Shown: positions 20,746-31,734 of the stretch, piece by piece
Position numbering within the stretch: position 1 is the stretch's first letter
Layout: each line of letters starts with the position of its first letter
Assembly: GCA_002438075.1 (NCBI GenBank)
Contig: DJSQ01000188.1
Location: 1 to 46,418, forward strand
Reading direction: 5' to 3'
From: Clostridiales bacterium UBA6330
Lineage (GTDB): Bacteria; Bacillota; Clostridia; Oscillospirales; CAG-272
DNA: 46,418 nt
The notes under the pieces: generated by a model
Told to the model about the DNA's origin: nothing
Databases searched by the model: none
The model's input: the letters and a program-made list of their open reading frames with translations, nothing else
Program-made: the position numbers and the translations under genes

Positions 20746-21114
20746 ATGACAGAGAGAAACTTCAACCGAAATACGGACCCGGAAATGCGCCGCCGTCTGG
20801 GGCGCTTTTTTCAGTCGGGGAGGGTCAGAAAGAAGATGACGCAGGAGCAGCTGGCGGAGGCGCTGGGGATGACCAAGAAGTCCGTCAGCTTTATCGAGAA
20901 CGGAAAGACCTATCCGAGCCCCGAGAACATTTTTCGCATGACCAAGCTGTTGGACCTGTCATTGGATGAATTCGTGTTCGGCTGTACGCGAACGGGGCAG
21001 AATTCGGTCCTGCCCGAGCTGAACGACGCAATCGGAAAGCTGAATCCGGCAGAGCAGGAATGCCTTGTTCGGGTGATGTTCGAGATTTGCCGCATGGTGG
21101 AGGTCGAGGCGTAA
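20746..21114 (+). CDS. XRE family HTH regulator
   Basis: MTQEQLAEALGMTKKSVSFIENGKTYPSPENIFRMTKLLDLSLDEFVF. Confidence 0.8.
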   Translation: MTERNFNRNTDPEMRRRLGRFFQSGRVRKKMTQEQLAEALGMTKKSVSFIENGKTYPSPENIFRMTKLLDLSLDEFVFGCTRTGQNSVLPELNDAIGKLNPAEQECLVRVMFEICRMVEVEA

Positions 21115-21117
21115 AAA

Positions 21118-21720
21118 ATGGTTGGCGTGACGTATGAGGAAGCGTTCCGCGCCTTCCATCGGGAGATCGTTCGTTACTGCCTGTCCGAATTTCCGAACGA
21201 CTGCTATTGCGCGGAGGACCTTGCAAGCGAATGCTTCATGCTGCTCTATCGGAAATGGGACACCCTGCAAAGCCACGCACCGACCACGGTGCGGGTCTGG
21301 CTCTTCCGCACCGCGCGCAACAAGGTGCTGGACTGCAAAAAGAAGAAGCGTCTGCAAACGGTCTCCCTTGACGACGAGAGCGGGCGCGCCCGACTGGAGC
21401 GTGAGGCGGCGCACCTGCTCCACCACCTCGACGAGCGGGAGGAGACCGAGCGGTATCGGCATTACCTGACCGAGATACGGAACGCGCTGACCGAGCTCGA
21501 ATGGCGGCTGTTTGATCTGGTTGTGAATCAGGAGCAACCGTTTCGGCAGGTCTCCGAGCGCTTGGGGACCACGGAAGCGGCGGCGAAAATGCGCTGGCAC
21601 CGTCTGCGGGCAAAGCTGAAGGACTTCCTGTCGGGGCTGTTCGCGCAAATGGGCTTCCTGACGGACGGACATCGGAAGTCGCCTGCGGAAAAGCGGCAGA
21701 CCTCGTCGGGGCACAGCTGA
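21118..21720 (+). CDS. sigma-70 family RNA polymerase sigma factor (ECF-like, regions 2 and 4)
   Basis: Region 2: AEDLASECFMLLYRKW...VWLFRTARNKVLDCKKKK. Region 4: WRLFDLVVNQEQPFRQVSERLGTTEAAAKMRWHRLRAKLK. Confidence 0.8.
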   Translation: MVGVTYEEAFRAFHREIVRYCLSEFPNDCYCAEDLASECFMLLYRKWDTLQSHAPTTVRVWLFRTARNKVLDCKKKKRLQTVSLDDESGRARLEREAAHLLHHLDEREETERYRHYLTEIRNALTELEWRLFDLVVNQEQPFRQVSERLGTTEAAAKMRWHRLRAKLKDFLSGLFAQMGFLTDGHRKSPAEKRQTSSGHS

Positions 21721-24244: not shown

Positions 24245-24913
24245 ATGGAAAAAGAGATACATACGGGTGCGGGACGCGGCTTTCTGCGATTCCTCACGGG
24301 CATCCTGTGGTTTGTAATTGCGGTGCTGATGATCAGCAGTGTGCTCCTGATTGCGGAGTCCCTGCTGTTCGGCGACAGGATTCCCGGGAACATCAACTGG
24401 AAGCCTGCGGCGGCAAAGACGGGCGTCATGGAGCCGACCGTGAAAAAGGGCGATCTGGTGATTCTGCGCCCCGTGGGAGAGGAGGACCTGACCGTTGGAA
24501 CGGTGGTCTCCTATCATACCGACGGCGGCTATGTGCTGGGGCGGATTACCGAGCGGCACGGCGCGGTTTCGCTGGTCAAGGGAGATGCGGAAACCGAGAG
24601 CGTGGCGGTGGAGAACACCGACATTCGCGGGGTCTGGCGCGGCACGAGAATTCCGATGGTCGGCTACTTCGTCGCGGGTGTGCAGAGCGCCCCGGGGGTT
24701 GTGCTGATGGTTGTGGCGGTGGTCCTGCTGTACATGATTGTGATGGCAATCATTCGCAGAAGCTACGCGGACGAGGCGGTTGTGTATTTCGGCTCCGCAG
24801 AGGCGGAGGGATTGGCGTTTGTGCTTTGCAGTCTGTCGCTGTTCGGCGGAGGTCTGTATCTCAGACATATTATCCGCAAGGGCGGCGAGACGGAAAGGAG
24901 CGGTAGACGGTGA
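24245..24913 (+). CDS. SipW/ER-type signal peptidase I homologue lacking the catalytic Ser and His (pseudo-peptidase)
   Basis: AKTGVMEPTVKKGDLVILRP compared with the consensus SGSMEP..GD; GGYVLGRITER compared with the consensus VTHRI; TM helices at both ends. Confidence 0.75.
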   Translation: MEKEIHTGAGRGFLRFLTGILWFVIAVLMISSVLLIAESLLFGDRIPGNINWKPAAAKTGVMEPTVKKGDLVILRPVGEEDLTVGTVVSYHTDGGYVLGRITERHGAVSLVKGDAETESVAVENTDIRGVWRGTRIPMVGYFVAGVQSAPGVVLMVVAVVLLYMIVMAIIRRSYADEAVVYFGSAEAEGLAFVLCSLSLFGGGLYLRHIIRKGGETERSGRR

Positions 24914-26012: not shown

Positions 26013-26879
26013 TTGAGCATGGATGAAGAAGTAAAAACGCAAACGGTTCCGAAGCGGGAAAAGGCCCTGAATCTGATGAAGAATATTGTGACATGGGTCG
26101 TGGTCGCCGTGGCGGTTTTCATGATGATCTTTACCATCATTTCCGCAACCACGCTGAATCGGAACGACCGCAGTCTGTTCGGGCTGAAGATGTATAAGGT
26201 CCTGTCCGACTCCATGAAGGCAACCGATTTTGCGGCGGGCGACTTGGTGTTTGTCAAGGCGGTGGACCCCGCAACGCTGAAGGAGGGGGACATCGTTTCC
26301 TACATCTCACAGAATACCGAGAACTTCGGCGAGACCGTGACGCATAAAATCCGCAGACTGACCACCGATGCGGAGGGTAACGCGGGCTTTGTGACCTACG
26401 GTACCACGACCGATACCGACGACGAAAAGGTGGTTACCTACCCGTTTGTGGTGGGAAAATACCAATTCCACATCCCGAAGCTTGGCTATTTCTTCGACTT
26501 CCTCAAAACCACCCCCGGCTATATCGTCTGTATCCTAGTCCCGTTCCTGCTCCTGATTCTTTCGCAGGGACTGACGAGCGTGCGGCTGTTCAAGCAGTAT
26601 AAGTCCGAGCAGAACGCGGCGCTGGAGGAGGAAAAAGCCAAGCTCGCCGCCGAAAAAGAGGAAACGCAGAAGATGATGGCGGAGCTGATGGCGATGAAGG
26701 CGCAAATGGAAGCGCAGAACGCACAGACGGCACAACCTGCTCAGCCTGCACAACCCGCACAGACGGCGGAGCCCGCAGAAGCGGAGCAGCCGACCACCGA
26801 GCCCGCAGAGGTGGCATCGGAAGAGCCGACAGCGCCTGCGGAGCCCGCAGAGACGGCAGAGACGCAACGGGCGGAGTAA
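26013..26879 (+). CDS. sipW: signal peptidase I, SipW (ER/archaeal) type, with ~100-aa coiled-coil/PAQ-PAE C-terminal tail
   Basis: KVLSDSMKATDFAAGDLVFV (Ser box), GETVTHKIRRL (His box), TM helices N- and C-terminal to the catalytic domain. Confidence 0.85.
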   Translation: MSMDEEVKTQTVPKREKALNLMKNIVTWVVVAVAVFMMIFTIISATTLNRNDRSLFGLKMYKVLSDSMKATDFAAGDLVFVKAVDPATLKEGDIVSYISQNTENFGETVTHKIRRLTTDAEGNAGFVTYGTTTDTDDEKVVTYPFVVGKYQFHIPKLGYFFDFLKTTPGYIVCILVPFLLLILSQGLTSVRLFKQYKSEQNAALEEEKAKLAAEKEETQKMMAELMAMKAQMEAQNAQTAQPAQPAQPAQTAEPAEAEQPTTEPAEVASEEPTAPAEPAETAETQRAE

Positions 26880-26918
26880 ACAGTAACAATAATAACAATA
26901 AGAAAGAAAAAACAAGCC

Positions 26919-26979
26919 CTCCACGAAACGTGGAGCGGCTACCGTAGAGCGAAAGCGGCGCTTGCGTCCTACGGTAGCC
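26919..26979 (+). other. intercistronic double stem-loop, copy 1
   Basis: CTCCACG-aaa-CGTGGAG, then GGCTACCGTAG...CTACGGTAGCC. No U-tract follows. Confidence 0.55.
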
Positions 26980-27009
26980 GAGAGGCATAGACAGAAGGGA
27001 GAACGGTTT

Positions 27010-27066
27010 ATGAGAATTGCACAAATCGGCAAATTATACCATGGGGGGGGGCATCGTCTCTTTTAG
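27010..27066 (+). CDS. leader micro-ORF containing the G9 tract: MRIAQIGKLYHGGGHRLF
   Basis: RBS AAGGGAGA is 6 nt upstream; the Q.IG.LY.GGG core is shared with the micro-ORF at 28986..29072. Confidence 0.3.
   Translation: MRIAQIGKLYHGGGHRLF
27043..27051. repeat. homopolymeric G9 tract
   Basis: Counted directly: ccat-ggggggggg-catc. Confidence 0.95.
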
Positions 27067-27191
27067 ATTGGTAAAAACAACTAATTGTGACGGTAAAGAT
27101 AAGACCAAATAGCGGAAGGTCTCCGATGTGTCGACGCGGGAAGCCTTCCTGACCGTGCGTCGGCAAATTCTCAAAAAGGAGATCGAAAAAA

Positions 27192-28895
27192 ATGAAAACC
27201 ATCAACACCAAAAAGGCGTTGATCGCAAGCCTGCTTTCGCTGGTGCTTTGCGTATCAATGCTCGTCGGCTCCACCTTCGCGTGGTTCACCGACACCGCAA
27301 CAACTTCGGTGAATACGATTCAAGCGGGTAAATTGCAGGTTGATATTGTGGATGGAGCGGGAGCTTCTCTGAAGGGCAAGTCCATGAGCTTTGTCGATAA
27401 GGACGGCTCTGCGGACATTCTTTGGGAGCCGGGTGCGACCTTCCGCACAATCGGCTTCAAGGTTAAGAACATTGGCAACCTTTCCTTCAAGTATAAGATG
27501 GTGCTCAACGGCGTGGACGGAAACAATGAGCTGCTGGATGTCATCACCTTCAAGGTCGTGAAGGCGGACGGCACGACGGTTGATCTCTCCACCTTTGAAG
27601 GACATCTCAAAAAGGACGATGTGTCCGACCTGCTCTACATCGAAGGACATATGGACGAGACCGCAGGCAACAAATATCAGGATATGAAGCTGGAGGGCAT
27701 CGGAATCACCGTTTACGCAACGCAGGATACGGTGGAGAACGACAGCAACGGCAATACATATGACGATGGCGCGGCGTATACCGAGGTGATTGACGCAGGT
27801 AAGACGTTTACAGGAAAGCAGACGCTGGATGTCGGCGTCACCGCTACCGATGCGAATGCAATTGCAGTGAAGGCAATTGGCGCGGATGCAGATGTTACCA
27901 TCACGGATGGTATTTATGATGGCGGCAATGGCGGAAACAATATCTGCGTTGCGGCGGCTAACGGAGCAAAGGTAACCATCAAGGGCGGAACCTTTACCGT
28001 TGGCGGTGATGCAGACGGCTACGGAAACTCGGTTGTCTATTCAGAGAACGGTAATATCGTAATTGAGGGTGGGTTCTTCTATACGAATTACAGCTACGGC
28101 GGCAGATACTATGTGCTGAATCAGAGCAACAGCAAGCCCGGAACGATTACGGTTAAAGGCGGTACGTTTGTAAACTATGACCCTTCCAAGGGCGATGATA
28201 ATCTGGGCGGCAATTTTGTGGCAGAGGGCTATATGGTTGTTGCGCAGAAGCAGGCAAACGGTGATATTTGGTATACCGTTGTAGAATCTTCAAAATTGCA
28301 AGAAGTGCTTAAAGAAGGCGGTGTTGTTACGGTTTTTACCGATATTGAAACGGGGAACAGTGCCGACACTTCGGACGCTCGCGTTATTATCAAGAATCCG
28401 ACTACACTGAATCTGAACGCAAAAATCATTTCCCCTGATGATATGGGGAACAATAGCACAAACTTTGTTGCGCTGATTGTAGATGCTGACACTACCATCA
28501 ATGCAGACGAAAACGGCGGAATCAATACGGGCACAAATGGCGGCTATGCTCTCAATGTGAGAAATGGTGCAACCCTGACCATCAATGGCGGTTCTTACTA
28601 CGGCGGTGGTACAACGGTTCAGGTTCAGAAGGGAACGCTGATTATCAACGGCGGAACCTTTGCTTGCGAGCCGTTTGGCGCTCCTTATTATACAAACTTC
28701 CTGCTGAACTGCGTCGATGCTGCTTACAAGAATGGCACGGCTAAGATTATTGTTAAGGGTGGCACATTTGTCAACTTTGACCCGTCCAACAATTCGGCAG
28801 AGGGCGCAGGAACCAACTTTGTGGCAGACGGCTACAAGGTGACCTCTGAAACGAAAGATAACGGTGAAGTTTGGTATACCGTTGTTCCGGAATAA
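27192..28895 (+). CDS. TasA-family N-terminal domain with SipW-type signal peptide, fused to two ~150-aa beta-helix-like repeats (567 aa)
   Basis: LVGSTFAWFTDTATT; ...AGNKYQDMKLEGIGITVYATQ; the repeats end KGGTFVNYDPS..NFVAEGYMV..NGDIWYTVV and KGGTFVNFDPS..NFVADGYKV..NGEVWYTVV. Confidence 0.85.
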   Translation: MKTINTKKALIASLLSLVLCVSMLVGSTFAWFTDTATTSVNTIQAGKLQVDIVDGAGASLKGKSMSFVDKDGSADILWEPGATFRTIGFKVKNIGNLSFKYKMVLNGVDGNNELLDVITFKVVKADGTTVDLSTFEGHLKKDDVSDLLYIEGHMDETAGNKYQDMKLEGIGITVYATQDTVENDSNGNTYDDGAAYTEVIDAGKTFTGKQTLDVGVTATDANAIAVKAIGADADVTITDGIYDGGNGGNNICVAAANGAKVTIKGGTFTVGGDADGYGNSVVYSENGNIVIEGGFFYTNYSYGGRYYVLNQSNSKPGTITVKGGTFVNYDPSKGDDNLGGNFVAEGYMVVAQKQANGDIWYTVVESSKLQEVLKEGGVVTVFTDIETGNSADTSDARVIIKNPTTLNLNAKIISPDDMGNNSTNFVALIVDADTTINADENGGINTGTNGGYALNVRNGATLTINGGSYYGGGTTVQVQKGTLIINGGTFACEPFGAPYYTNFLLNCVDAAYKNGTAKIIVKGGTFVNFDPSNNSAEGAGTNFVADGYKVTSETKDNGEVWYTVVPE

Positions 28896-28908
28896 AATCA
28901 ATCAGTCT

Positions 28909-28972
28909 CTCCATCCATCGGGTGGAGGGGCTACCGAAGCGGATAAGCGTTGGTTTATCCGTTTCGGTAGCC
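28909..28972 (+). other. intercistronic double stem-loop, copy 2
   Basis: CTCCATCC-atc-GGGTGGAG, then GGCTACCGAAGCGGATAAGC-gttg-GTTTATCCGTTTCGGTAGCC (G.U pairs only on the plus-strand RNA). Confidence 0.6.
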
Positions 28973-28985
28973 GAATGGCAAAATC

Positions 28986-29072
28986 ATGAGAGGAGGAGAA
29001 GTCTTTTATGAAAAACAGACAATCGGCAATCTGTATAACGGGGGGGGGGGTATCATCTTTCTGAATTGGTGA
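28986..29072 (+). CDS. leader micro-ORF containing the G11 tract: MRGGEVFYEKQTIGNLYNGGGGIIFLNW
   Basis: This frame preserves IG(N/K)LY(N/H)GGG relative to copy 1, with synonymous TTA/CTG and TAC/TAT changes. An alternative ATG at 29008 (with GAGGAGGAG upstream) gives MKNRQSAICITGGGVSSF. Confidence 0.3.
   Translation: MRGGEVFYEKQTIGNLYNGGGGIIFLNW
29040..29050. repeat. homopolymeric G11 tract
   Basis: Counted directly: tataac-ggggggggggg-tatc. Confidence 0.95.
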
Positions 29073-29182
29073 TATCAACCAATCAAGACGGGAAAAAGAC
29101 GAAATAGCGGAAGGTCTCCTTGCGTCGGCGCGGGATGCCTTTCTGACCGTGCGTCGACAATTACAGAAAAGGAGACGAAACG

Positions 29183-31138
29183 ATGAAAACCAACAACACC
29201 AAAAAAGCGTTGATTGCAAGCCTGCTTTCGCTGGTCCTCTGCGTATCAATGCTCGTCGGCTCCACCTTCGCGTGGTTTACCGACACCGCAACAACGGCAG
29301 TGAATACCATTCAGGCGGGCAATCTGAAAATTGACATTGTAAACGAAGCAGGCGTTTCTTTGAAGGGCTCCGACATGAGCTTTGTCAACAAGGATGGCTC
29401 CGCTGATATCCTCTGGGAGCCGGGCGCGACCTTCAGAACCCCGGGCTTCAAGGTCAAGAACATTGGCAACCTTGCGCTCAAGTACAAAATGCTCCTGAAC
29501 GGCGTAACGGGTGACAACGAATTGCTGAAGGTAATCAAATTCTCGGTCGTGGACGAAAACGGCGCGGTTGTGAATTTGGATAGCTATGAGGCGGTCCTCA
29601 AAAAGGATGAAACGAGCGGCGTTCTCTACATCGAAGGTCATATGGCAGAGGATGCGGGCAATACCTATCAGGGCTTAAAGCTGAACGGTCTCGGAATCAC
29701 GGTTTATGCAACGCAGTATGCTGATGAATCCGATAGCAACGGCAGTGATTATGACAAGGATGCAACCTACCCGATTGTTGCGGTTGCAACGGTGACGGTG
29801 GACGAATCCGGAAAAACAACCGAGAAAAGCGAGTTGACCTCCACGGACAGCTCGACAAAGGTTACGGTTCCCGCAGGCGCGAAGGTCGACGATACGAAGC
29901 TGGTCCTGACCATCCATGAAGCCGCAGACCCCGAAAACTTTACGGTAAAAGCAACCGATGTAAGCCAAACTCTGGAAGTAAAGATGGTAGGTCTTGCAGA
30001 GGACAACACGGAGTTGATTCGCGTTGTAATGAATGTTGGCAAGAGTTTGAATGGATTCGCGCTCTATCATAACGGCACCGCAATGACAAAGAAGGATACT
30101 GTGGCAGACCTTACCGCAGATCAGGACTATTATTATGACAGTGCCAAGGGTGAGGTAACGATGTTGACCTCGCATTTCTCTCCGTTTACCTATACCTATG
30201 CAAAGGGAGATTGGAACGATCAGCTCACGGACGATGCCGATTTTGAAACGCCCGTTGATACGGAAAAGAAGGTTGTGACAATTGCTTCCGCCTCGGAACT
30301 GGCTCTGTTTGCAAAGCAGATTACCGATAAGGGAAAGAACTACTCCGGCTATACCGTGAACATCGTTGCCGATATTGATTTGAGTGCCGGACTTTGGAAG
30401 CCGATCAATGGTTGGGGTAAAATGGATCACATTGTGATTAACGGTAACGGGCATACCATCAAAAATATGATTGTTCGGGATTGTATCAATCCGAATAGCG
30501 GTGGATACGGTGCAGGCTTTATTGGTCAGACGAGCGGCTCAATTACTATTGAGAATCTCACTTTTGATTCTGCGAATGTTGCATTTCCCCATGCTGAATG
30601 GTATAATGGCTATGTTGGAAATGTCGGTGGCGTTGTGATGGGCTATACCTACGGAACGACGCTCTTTGAGAATGTCAGTGTGGTTAATAGCACCATTCAG
30701 GGCTACGGTAAAATCGGATGTCTGTTGGGCATGGGTGCAGACCCCGGCGTAAAGGTTACATTCAGGGATTGCGTATCGAAGAATAATACCATTCACGCCG
30801 TTTATAACATGGGTGGACTTGCAGGCAATATTCAACGTGGAAACGGTGTTGACAATACAACGGTGGAAAACTGCACAGTTGAAAATATTGTAGTCGAATA
30901 TGATGCGAATGAAAAATATGCAGATTTGGTTAACGTGAAGGTGACCTACAGCACCAATGATGTAACTGAGGATTCCACCGTGGAAAAAATTGTAAGCGGA
31001 AAATATTGGATTTGTCAAGGTTACTATTGGGGCGGTTATGCGGATTACTATGTTTCTTACGGTGACAGTGCATATGATGCACCTGCGGAAGGGCATAGTA
31101 TGAAACTTGCCAATGGCGAGTATGATGTAAATAAATAA
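29183..31138 (+). CDS. TasA-family N-terminal domain with SipW-type signal peptide, fused to an Ig-like middle region and a GLUG-like beta-helix module (651 aa)
   Basis: LVGSTFAWFTDTATT; ...AGNTYQGLKLNGLGITVYATQ. The C-terminal ASASELALFAKQI...YTVNIVADIDLSAGLWKPI...GNGHTIKNM...GAGFIG...GGVVMG...GGLAG resembles ORF 487..1998. Confidence 0.85.
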   Translation: MKTNNTKKALIASLLSLVLCVSMLVGSTFAWFTDTATTAVNTIQAGNLKIDIVNEAGVSLKGSDMSFVNKDGSADILWEPGATFRTPGFKVKNIGNLALKYKMLLNGVTGDNELLKVIKFSVVDENGAVVNLDSYEAVLKKDETSGVLYIEGHMAEDAGNTYQGLKLNGLGITVYATQYADESDSNGSDYDKDATYPIVAVATVTVDESGKTTEKSELTSTDSSTKVTVPAGAKVDDTKLVLTIHEAADPENFTVKATDVSQTLEVKMVGLAEDNTELIRVVMNVGKSLNGFALYHNGTAMTKKDTVADLTADQDYYYDSAKGEVTMLTSHFSPFTYTYAKGDWNDQLTDDADFETPVDTEKKVVTIASASELALFAKQITDKGKNYSGYTVNIVADIDLSAGLWKPINGWGKMDHIVINGNGHTIKNMIVRDCINPNSGGYGAGFIGQTSGSITIENLTFDSANVAFPHAEWYNGYVGNVGGVVMGYTYGTTLFENVSVVNSTIQGYGKIGCLLGMGADPGVKVTFRDCVSKNNTIHAVYNMGGLAGNIQRGNGVDNTTVENCTVENIVVEYDANEKYADLVNVKVTYSTNDVTEDSTVEKIVSGKYWICQGYYWGGYADYYVSYGDSAYDAPAEGHSMKLANGEYDVNK

Positions 31139-31149
31139 AAAATTTGTCT

Positions 31150-31213
31150 CTCCACCCATCGGGTGGAGGGGCTACCGAAGCGGATAAGCGACGGTTTATC
31201 CGTTTCGGTAGCC
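31150..31213 (+). other. intercistronic double stem-loop, copy 3
   Basis: CTCCACCC-atc-GGGTGGAG, then GGCTACCGAAGCGGATAAGC-gacg-GTTTATCCGTTTCGGTAGCC. Confidence 0.6.
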
Positions 31214-31242: not shown

Positions 31243-31734
31243 ATGAATTTTATGATGCAAGCAAAGGCAGAGGGTAATTTGACCAAAATTCTGCTTCCGT
31301 CCGTGCTGTCTATCCTGCTCTGTCTGGTGTTGCTGTGCGGCATGACATGGGCGTGGTTTACCTCCACGCAATCCGCCCCCGCAGCTACCATTATGTCTGC
31401 TACCTACAACATTGATATTGTTGCGAAAAACGGGGAGACCGAGTTAAGCGGGCAGAACGGCACATATACCTTGATGGCAGGCGTTGAGTATACTGTCACG
31501 CTCACTGCCTCGGGGACTGCCAAAACGGGATATTGCAAGATGACGCTCCCGAACGGCACTTCTCTTTTTACTGACCAAATAGGGATAGGCGAAGAGAATG
31601 CTTTTTCCTTTAAGCTGATGTTGGAGGCGGGCGGTGAAGTGCGCTTTTCTCCGCAATGGGGAACCTGTACACAAGATGATATAGCGGATATTAAGCGTGA
31701 CAATACAATTGTAAACGGTTCAATTCAAAAATAA
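31243..31734 (+). CDS. small TasA/camelysin-like protein with SipW-type signal peptide (163 aa)
   Basis: LLCGMTWAWFTSTQSAP; beta-rich ~120-aa mature part; RBS AAAGGAG upstream. Confidence 0.7.
   Translation: MNFMMQAKAEGNLTKILLPSVLSILLCLVLLCGMTWAWFTSTQSAPAATIMSATYNIDIVAKNGETELSGQNGTYTLMAGVEYTVTLTASGTAKTGYCKMTLPNGTSLFTDQIGIGEENAFSFKLMLEAGGEVRFSPQWGTCTQDDIADIKRDNTIVNGSIQK

Follow-up and report, generated by a model that had tools for sequence, protein, structure and literature searches.

Poly-G tracts in leader open reading frames of TasA-like genes: a candidate phase-variable translational switch in gut Clostridia

Switches based on simple sequence repeats (SSRs) are regarded as a hallmark of Gram-negative mucosal pathogens, and most of the phase variation known in gut commensal Firmicutes involves invertible promoters. 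Here we describe two guanine homopolymers (G tracts) in a 46,418-base stretch of Clostridiales bacterium UBA6330 (contig DJSQ01000188.1 of GenBank assembly GCA_002438075.1; this whole stretch is called the window below); each tract lies in the 5' leader of one of two paralogous genes, A and B, that encode large TasA-like proteins. As in the SSR contingency loci of Campylobacter, Neisseria, Haemophilus, Bordetella and Mycobacterium, leaders of this kind carry a pure G run of 8-12 by surface-structure genes, and the length of the run varies among paralogues and close relatives and shifts a reading frame. Unlike in those loci, the tract lies in a putatively regulatory upstream open reading frame (uORF) of 18-34 codons rather than in a structural gene or promoter, the proposed output is the unmasking of a sequestered Shine-Dalgarno sequence (SD), and the hosts are gut commensal Clostridia.

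In ermC, cat, secM-secA, mifM-yidC2 and MS2 coat-replicase, as in the leaders described here, an SD-preceded leader ORF stands before a main SD that is paired upstream; the position of the ribosome on the leader decides access to that SD, as it would here. In those systems this position is set by drug- or force-dependent stalling, whereas we propose that it is set by a frame that the homopolymer chooses, and no arrest peptide is evident in our leaders, in which the peptide is not conserved. By analogy, the leader may work like a combination of an SSR contingency locus and leader-ORF control of a masked SD of the ermC, secM or mifM type.

Other described systems share single elements with this locus. 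Upstream poly-G length correlates with expression in Moraxella catarrhalis uspA1 and Treponema pallidum tpr, and there too the poly-G precedes an adhesin or surface-protein gene; however, those tracts act on transcription, whereas ours lies in a translated-looking uORF well past the promoter where one is recognisable (in leaders L104 and L107). In Bacillus subtilis pyrG, a poly-G segment pairs with a pyrimidine-rich strand and remodels a leader hairpin. A similar pairing is predicted here, but the pyrG guanines are 5'-terminal additions that RNA polymerase makes at low CTP, whereas the present run is genomic, internal and within an ORF. Clostridioides difficile cwpV, flgB and cmrRST show that surface-protein genes of Clostridia can be under phase-variable control in the 5' leader; in those cases site-specific DNA inversion controls termination or promoter orientation, whereas inverted repeats and a recombinase have no part in the present leaders.

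With regard to gene content, the closest described loci are tapA-sipW-tasA of B. subtilis and sipW-bsaA of C. perfringens, in which genes for SipW-type peptidases likewise adjoin SipW-dependent substrates. We know of no poly-G leader or uORF described for either locus. Both are controlled by transcription factors, unlike what we propose here, and the proteins of the present locus are large fusions with weak sequence and fold similarity to TasA. Expression of bsaA is reported to be heterogeneous (PMC7395162).

The literature was searched for poly-G leaders in front of TasA-like genes and for phase variation that works through a coupling uORF, and no report of either was found. Rfam 15 gave no match at gathering score in the window, and only chance-level matches (E>1) in 26850-29250.

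Leader architecture in the window and in related Clostridia

Sequence inspection placed a G9 tract at 27043-27051 and a G11 tract at 29040-29050. A sequence-only reading of this DNA had described both as the sole runs of their kind, about 140 nt upstream of the ATGs of two paralogous genes, and these statements held: no further G or C run of ≥7 occurs anywhere in the window, and the distance from tract end to main ATG is 140 nt for gene A and 132 nt for gene B. The base composition predicts 0.54 runs of G≥9 and 0.047 of G≥11. Each leader is structured and roughly 280 nt long, and the two align with 81% identity across about 300 nt. Further conserved blocks noted in the same reading were recovered: AAATAGCGGAAGGTCTCC, shared by both leaders, holds a conserved stop codon and an anti-SD, and an 8-bp stem found in both leaders (GTCGACGC/GCGTCGGC vs GTCGGCGC/GCGTCGAC) is the covarying stem P. 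Pairings in the lists below come from RNAalifold or from minimum free energy (MFE) folds; SD1 denotes the SD of the short uORF (micro-ORF) and SD2 that of the main gene.

Leader A:
26919..26979, + strand: 5' hairpins Ha (26919-26935) and Hb (26938-26979); sequence and fold
26997..27001, + strand: SD1 of micro-ORF A, GGGAG, with the ATG 8 nt further on; sequence
27010..27066, + strand: micro-ORF A as assembled, 18 codons in a short frame, MRIAQIGKLYHGGGHRLF followed by a stop; sequence
27043..27051, + strand: G9 tract A; sequence
27057..27064, + strand: pyrimidine stretch UCUCUUUU, partner of G tract A; RNAalifold helix
27067..27085, + strand: hairpin H2, AUUGGU...ACUAAU, which holds the stops of both short frames; covariation and frame analysis
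27110..27112, + strand: anchor stop codon ending the long frame; conserved stop
27118..27124, + strand: anti-SD GGUCUCC; pairs with SD2 in the MFE fold
27130..27164, + strand: stem P and its loop (27130-27137 with 27157-27164); covariation
27178..27194, + strand: SD2 GGAGAUC and start codon of gene A; sequence and fold

Leader B:
28907..28972, + strand: 5' hairpins Ha and Hb; sequence and fold
28992..28998, + strand: SD1 of micro-ORF B, GGAGGAG, with the ATG 9 nt further on; sequence
29008..29064, + strand: micro-ORF B as assembled, homologue of micro-ORF A, 18 codons in a short frame, MKNRQSAICITGGGVSSF followed by a stop; sequence
29040..29050, + strand: G11 tract B; sequence
29056..29083, + strand: pyrimidine stretch (29056-29062) and H2 (29065-29083); RNAalifold and covariation
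29105..29119, + strand: anchor stop UAG (29105-29107) and anti-SD GGUCUCC (29113-29119); fold and stop test
29124..29158, + strand: stem P (29124-29131 with 29151-29158); RNAalifold and covariation
29171..29185, + strand: SD2 GGAGAC and start codon of gene B; sequence and fold

An SD-preceded short ORF had been proposed around each tract. For tract A this ORF (27010-27066) was found as described; for tract B, the assigned start at 28986 lacks an SD, and the true start is the ATG at 29008, 9 nt after GGAGGAG. The ATG at 28986 is instead part of a CAU hairpin arm: it lies within CAUGAGAGGA, and in the MFE fold of this region (28985-29010) the pairing of CAUGAGAGGA with UCUUUUAUG sequesters the true AUG of the micro-ORF. 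The counterpart in leader A is a CAUAGAC...GUUUAUG hairpin.

We used a profile of the TasA N-domain to scan one genome per species, which yielded 77 loci, mostly from metagenome-assembled genomes (MAGs) of gut Oscillospiraceae and other Clostridia. These loci contain 16 G or C runs of ≥8, and 14 of them are located 95-160 nt upstream of TasA-like genes, always with G on the sense strand; this placement is far beyond chance. Additional leaders came from a pattern scan of metagenome contigs, and a covariance model built from 17 leaders gave 36 strong matches in 95 sources. Altogether, homologous leaders with a pure G run in this position number at least 35 and represent 12 or more lineages of gut Clostridia, mostly Oscillospiraceae-type MAGs; the run lengths are 6, 7, 8, 9, 10, 11 and 12, with a mode of 9. 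The element is present at about one-sixth of the TasA-like genes in these loci, and it is missing from L013, the closest homologue of gene A (82% identity).

From 5' to 3', the shared order is Ha, Hb, SD, ATG, 32 or 33 nt, G tract, a loop of 3-9 nt, pyrimidine stretch and H2, then a poorly conserved spacer, a stop codon, a CUCC-type anti-SD, stem P, an A-rich linker, the main SD and the start codon. In every lineage an SD stands 7-9 nt upstream of the micro-ORF ATG, and the spacing from ATG to tract is 32 or 33 nt in all lineages despite sequence divergence (22 nt in L025).

This recurrence bears on whether the tracts exist at all. The sequence-only reading had recognised that they could be errors of homopolymer assembly, and homopolymer lengths are indeed error-prone; one metagenome contig (L114) even ends at its tract. 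However, the tracts are internal, have conserved flanks on both sides and recur in dozens of assemblies that were made independently, in different studies and with different assemblers. We therefore regard poly-G miscalls or homopolymer errors as an extremely improbable explanation, effectively refuted for the existence of the tracts.

The 36 contigs listed for P0216 were rejected as members of the family, as their leader is different and has no tract. Distant relatives among MAGs of Anaerovoracaceae and Lachnospiraceae (L090:2261-2376 and L053:1-99) have a homologous leader with a micro-ORF (MGTTQL..) that contains GTGGAAGGG or GGGGAGGG in place of a homopolymer, which suggests that the homopolymer may have evolved from, or may decay into, a G-rich SD-like segment.

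Reading frames and a possible frame-dependent switch

Two of the three frames that leave the tract meet a stop within 4-36 nt, mostly in or just before H2, and the third remains open for 53-74 nt. Tract length had been proposed to set the frame, and a change of one G in either direction does move the end of the micro-ORF among three stops: 27066, 27075 or 27112 in leader A, and 29064, 29072 or 29107 in leader B. Micro-ORF A reaches 27112, at a length of 33-34 codons, with G8 or G11, and micro-ORF B reaches 29107 with G7, G10 or G13. As assembled, both copies in the window are in a short frame, one G deletion away from the long frame.

The length of the open frame was rejected as evidence by itself, because chance explains it: dinucleotide shuffles leave ≥53 nt open after the tract with P of about 0.8. 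We replaced this argument with an anchor-stop phase test and with the geometry of L086 and L090. The anchor was defined independently of the frames, as the nearest stop codon upstream of the anti-SD core. Of 24 leaders examined, 23 have it at a distance of 3-14 nt upstream of the anti-SD (L086 lacks it), as UAG, UAA or UGA according to lineage. Followed back to the tract, the phase of the anchor is stop-free in 22 of these 23 leaders, and each of the remaining two phases contains about 2 stops. L086 has no anchor stop, and its long frame continues for 44 codons to a point 5 nt short of the main ATG. L090 is a distant relative that lacks a homopolymer; its homologous uORF of 37 codons terminates 4 nt upstream of the main ATG. 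Both end positions support coupling, as such geometry is classic for it.

Conservation of the micro-ORF peptide was rejected as a line of evidence. The peptide core IG(K/N)LY(H/N)GGG, which had been taken as a sign of translation, proved to compare different frames: most leaders read the element CAATCGGCAAT.TG.AC as ..QSAICT.., whereas leader A of the window (W_A), L015_A and the L048 group read it as ..IGNLYH.., owing to a 1-nt indel near codons 2-5. Since the same nucleotides occupy different frames across lineages, it is the nucleotides that are conserved and not the peptide. H2 occupies the same position as the LVxLTN motif of the long frame, and by-eye reading indicates that L101 keeps the helix at the expense of the peptide. 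In one lineage (L095, L100, L119, L120 and L123-L126), a 10-nt insertion, ATGCAAAGCT, some 45 nt upstream of the tract has introduced a new ATG close to the SD; this ATG is out of frame with the ancestral one and shifts the tract lengths that would give the long frame.

These leaders share features with both contingency loci and masked-SD coupling systems. The homopolymers are long enough to slip (about 7-8 nt or more) and are placed inside an SD-preceded uORF. The uORF carries an SD and a start codon of its own, a complementary upstream segment sequesters the main SD, and a stop lies beside the masking helix or the main start; the last of these holds in one frame of three only. On this basis we consider it a serious possibility, a little short of probable, that the G tract is a slippage-prone frame-setter in a translational-coupling uORF, that is, a phase-variable translational switch. 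In such a switch, a ribosome in the long frame would melt H2 and terminate on top of the anti-SD; the main SD would thereby be freed and the fibre gene translated (ON). A ribosome in either short frame would drop off about 45 nt earlier, and the SD would stay masked (OFF or low). The dimensions of the ribosome footprint are established, and a ribosome terminating at the anchor would, given these dimensions, cover or unwind the anti-SD. G/C homopolymers of ≥8 gain and lose bases through slipped-strand mispairing, so each paralogue would switch on its own, independently and heritably, as mispairing changes its tract length. In this model the uORF would be translated, and tract length would alter expression of the main gene.

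More tentatively, the leaders may represent an undescribed class of contingency switch in gut Oscillospiraceae-type Clostridia, in which a hypermutable poly-G in a coupling uORF gates translation of fibre and adhesin paralogues. It is possible, with a similar degree of caution, that a lineage displays a stochastic, heritable and combinatorial subset of alternative fibre tips through such frame-dependent SD unmasking. If true, abundant uncultured human-gut Clostridia would vary their surface fibres and adhesins paralogue by paralogue, and control by a homopolymer that sets which frame of a leader ORF is read, and so whether a ribosome-binding site is unmasked, would be a new regulatory logic. 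The leaders would also form a new and easily recognised family of cis-regulatory RNAs, one that could be checked in metagenomic reads, in which several tract lengths should coexist per sample. The state of a gene would be unreadable from its structural ORF, since the structural ORF stays intact.

Tract-length variation, RNA structure and promoter context

Tract lengths reported here are consensus lengths in assemblies. Length differs between several closely related leaders: 8 in L084/L121 and 9 in L099 (113/120 downstream bases identical), 11 in L017 and 10 in L109 (118/120), 9 in L020 and 6 in L002 (112/120), and 7 in L119-L125 and 8 in L126 (flanks near-identical). Leader B of the window (W_B) has 11 and L015_B has 9, albeit in leaders that are not close (98/119). 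Four paralogues within one genome (L025) have 8, 8, 9 and 11. The sequence-only reading had proposed to count lengths in related strains and metagenomes; consensus length differed among paralogues and close orthologues and was constant in identical leaders. The start codon is in the long frame in about one-third of leaders. In the diverged clade of L097, L101, L104 and L107, the four members analysed in full each have nine guanines and a start codon in the long frame, and L112, a fifth member with its 5' end cut, also has nine.

Judged from these comparisons, the design of the leader is conserved and its phase is not. A slippery frame-setter predicts this pattern, which is hard to reconcile with a fixed-frame regulatory uORF.

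The same variation bears on slippage at another level, in RNA polymerase or the ribosome and not in DNA, whereby a fixed fraction of ribosomes would enter the long frame irrespective of genomic tract length and the leader would be a rheostat rather than a heritable switch. The evidence from the uORF, the anchor and the masked SD fits this explanation equally well, genomic tract length is stable in identical lineages, and the design is conserved even though most leaders are genomically out of frame. Moreover, homopolymer runs of ≥9 cause transcriptional slippage in bacteria. However, productive transcriptional slippage is documented mainly for A/T runs, G-rich heptamers are poor sites for -1 frameshifting, and genomic length varies between close lineages; we consider slippage of this type distinctly unlikely.

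RNAalifold predicted helices between the G run and the pyrimidine stretch, in H2 and in P. Across 39 distinct leaders, standard pairs occupy 91% of cells, vs 79% in shuffles and 38-58% with slid partners, although these counts come from an alignment fitted to the model and therefore lean towards it. Changes on both sides were found in 12 of 18 pairs overall (6/7 in P and 4/5 in H2). The helix between G run and pyrimidines is paired in 93% of cells, with variation between GC and GU only. When the last 100 nt were folded, the MFE structure joined the anti-SD to SD2 in 16 of 16 leaders; the duplex of each leader's own anti-SD and SD is more stable than cross-leader duplexes (-12.4 vs -10.0 kcal/mol, permutation p=0.002). 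The whole leaders of the window fold far better than shuffles, with z = -4.2 and -6.4.

These data are the basis of the main rival to a frame-setting tract, namely that the leader is a structural RNA only. The G run would then be the 5' arm of a conserved hairpin with the pyrimidine stretch, within a network of pairings between SD-like and anti-SD-like segments of a leader with a riboregulatory role, and the frame of the micro-ORF would be irrelevant. Because poly-G pairs with any C/U register, tract length would drift neutrally. The paired helix and the strong folding of the leaders fit this explanation.

Several further observations weigh against a switch set by tract length. The G run has a conserved pairing partner, so a structural role alone could conserve it. 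Identical leaders from five samples all have G7, and L097, L101 and L104, from three samples, all have G9. In distant relatives the uORF is kept and the homopolymer is replaced by GGGGAGGG or GUGGAAGGG. The proportion of leaders in the long frame equals the random-phase expectation. A conserved design with variable phase is predicted equally by a non-functional frame, and that pattern is not decisive. The open frame of ≥53 nt is, as noted above, expected by chance; the arrangement of one long and two short frames arises in shuffles with P of about 0.27 per leader, and the leaders are homologous and not independent. Finally, the nucleotides of the uORF N-terminus are read in two frames across lineages. 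The constant lengths, the replaced homopolymers and the random phase also count in favour of a purely structural RNA.

On the other hand, the pyrimidine partner spans only 5-8 nt, while pure G runs reach 11-12, and no G-to-A interruption occurs in runs of ≥8 although many partners are U. A structural role alone also leaves unexplained the conserved SD1 and AUG, the anchor stop in three spellings, the stop-free frame and the end positions in L086 and L090. We therefore judge a purely structural RNA to be rather unlikely, and favour, with the caution expressed above, a tract that sets the frame of the uORF.

The hairpin of the G run was also considered as an intrinsic terminator. By-eye reading found its stems weak and G.U-rich, mostly with no separate U tail in the lineages compared, and this candidate was rejected for these reasons.

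An effect at the level of transcription, in which the G run would modulate transcription from a promoter spacer or an early transcribed region, was assessed by searching for promoters. A weak promoter-like match in copy A, TAGACA-18-GAGAAT (26988-27017), overlaps the start of micro-ORF A, and a TAnnnT-like hexamer directly follows the tract in many leaders. However, other lineages lack a counterpart of the match in copy A, and a search by hand for -35/-10 pairs with 16-18 nt spacing around the tract found none in any lineage, candidate spacers being 13-14 or 20-24 nt. L104 and L107 contain a perfect TTGACA-17-TATAAT promoter about 165 nt upstream of the micro-ORF; because this consensus promoter sits upstream, Ha, Hb and the tract lie inside the 5' untranslated region in these leaders. 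No comparable promoter is recognisable in the window. Based on the spacings and on the promoter of L104 and L107, we rejected the tract as a promoter spacer, and we hold any effect at the level of transcription to be very improbable.

Two metagenome contigs end at or near such tracts: L114:1978 ends exactly at a G10, and L108:1-118 ends about 47 nt past a similar tract. Both ends could be assembly breaks induced by a repeat or homopolymer.

Downstream genes and neighbouring elements

The two main genes are the following.
27192..28895, + strand: gene A, 567 aa, with a SipW-type signal peptide, a TasA-like N-domain and beta-rich C-terminal repeats (TIGR04088, PF12389)
29183..31138, + strand: gene B, 651 aa, paralogue of gene A with a common N-domain and a different C-terminal region (TIGR04088, PF12389)

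Both large proteins match TIGR04088 (SipW-dependent signal peptide), and their genes are positioned 3' of two genes for SipW-like signal peptidases (24245-24913 and 26013-26879, with matches to NF046067/TIGR02228) and two small TasA-like genes. The N-terminal match to Pfam PF12389 is confined to residues 7-55, and a profile search of PDB sequences did not find TasA. An AlphaFold2 model of protein A, with a predicted local distance difference test (pLDDT) score of 79, is nearly all beta-strand. When used as a Foldseek query, it gave weak matches (E about 0.003-0.01) to donor-strand pilins, including AbpA (7ueg), a TasA-related archaeal bundling pilus, and the 0406 filament (7pnb). The label "TasA" therefore derives mainly from signal peptide and gene context. 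Protein A contains two internal beta-rich modules that end in ...KGGTFVN(Y/F)DPS...G.NFVA.GY...W(Y)TVV; protein B shares the N-domain only. The window equals contig k119_60942 of ENA assembly ERZ27300198; among genomes, Eubacterium sp. CAG:180 is its nearest relative (N-domain identity 85%). Six to eight contigs of the same species encode identical proteins, and one extra contig ends before the tract.

The Ha/Hb hairpin pairs trail the stops of the SipW gene, gene A and gene B, the third of these copies lying at 31147-31213. The arms of Ha are CUCUCCAC..GUGGAGAG, and Hb is long and resembles an intrinsic terminator in several lineages. The third copy runs directly into the SD of a small TasA-like gene (31243-31734), without a micro-ORF and without a G tract. 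The pair may be an attenuator, or an element for mRNA processing or stabilisation.

A gene for a helix-turn-helix (HTH) protein and a gene for an extracytoplasmic function (ECF)-type sigma-70 factor (21118-21720, TIGR02937) lie within 20746-21720. Located a few kb 5' of the cluster of SipW and TasA-like genes, these two genes may regulate it.

Several TasA-like genes of Clostridia type (L021, L031, L070, L071, L085 and P0021) are filed under MAGs that are not Clostridia, labelled Tannerellaceae, Bacteroidaceae, Alloprevotella, Sphaerochaetaceae, Bacteroides and "Escherichia coli"; these contigs are most likely binning contamination. In Candidatus Neochristensenella gallicola (L080:2914-2955), a G12 run begins 30 nt after an ATG (ATGAAATTTGACAAAATACGGCAATTTTTC-G12). 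No TasA-like gene was detected downstream of it, and long frames are open past the run, which may belong to another tract-controlled gene.

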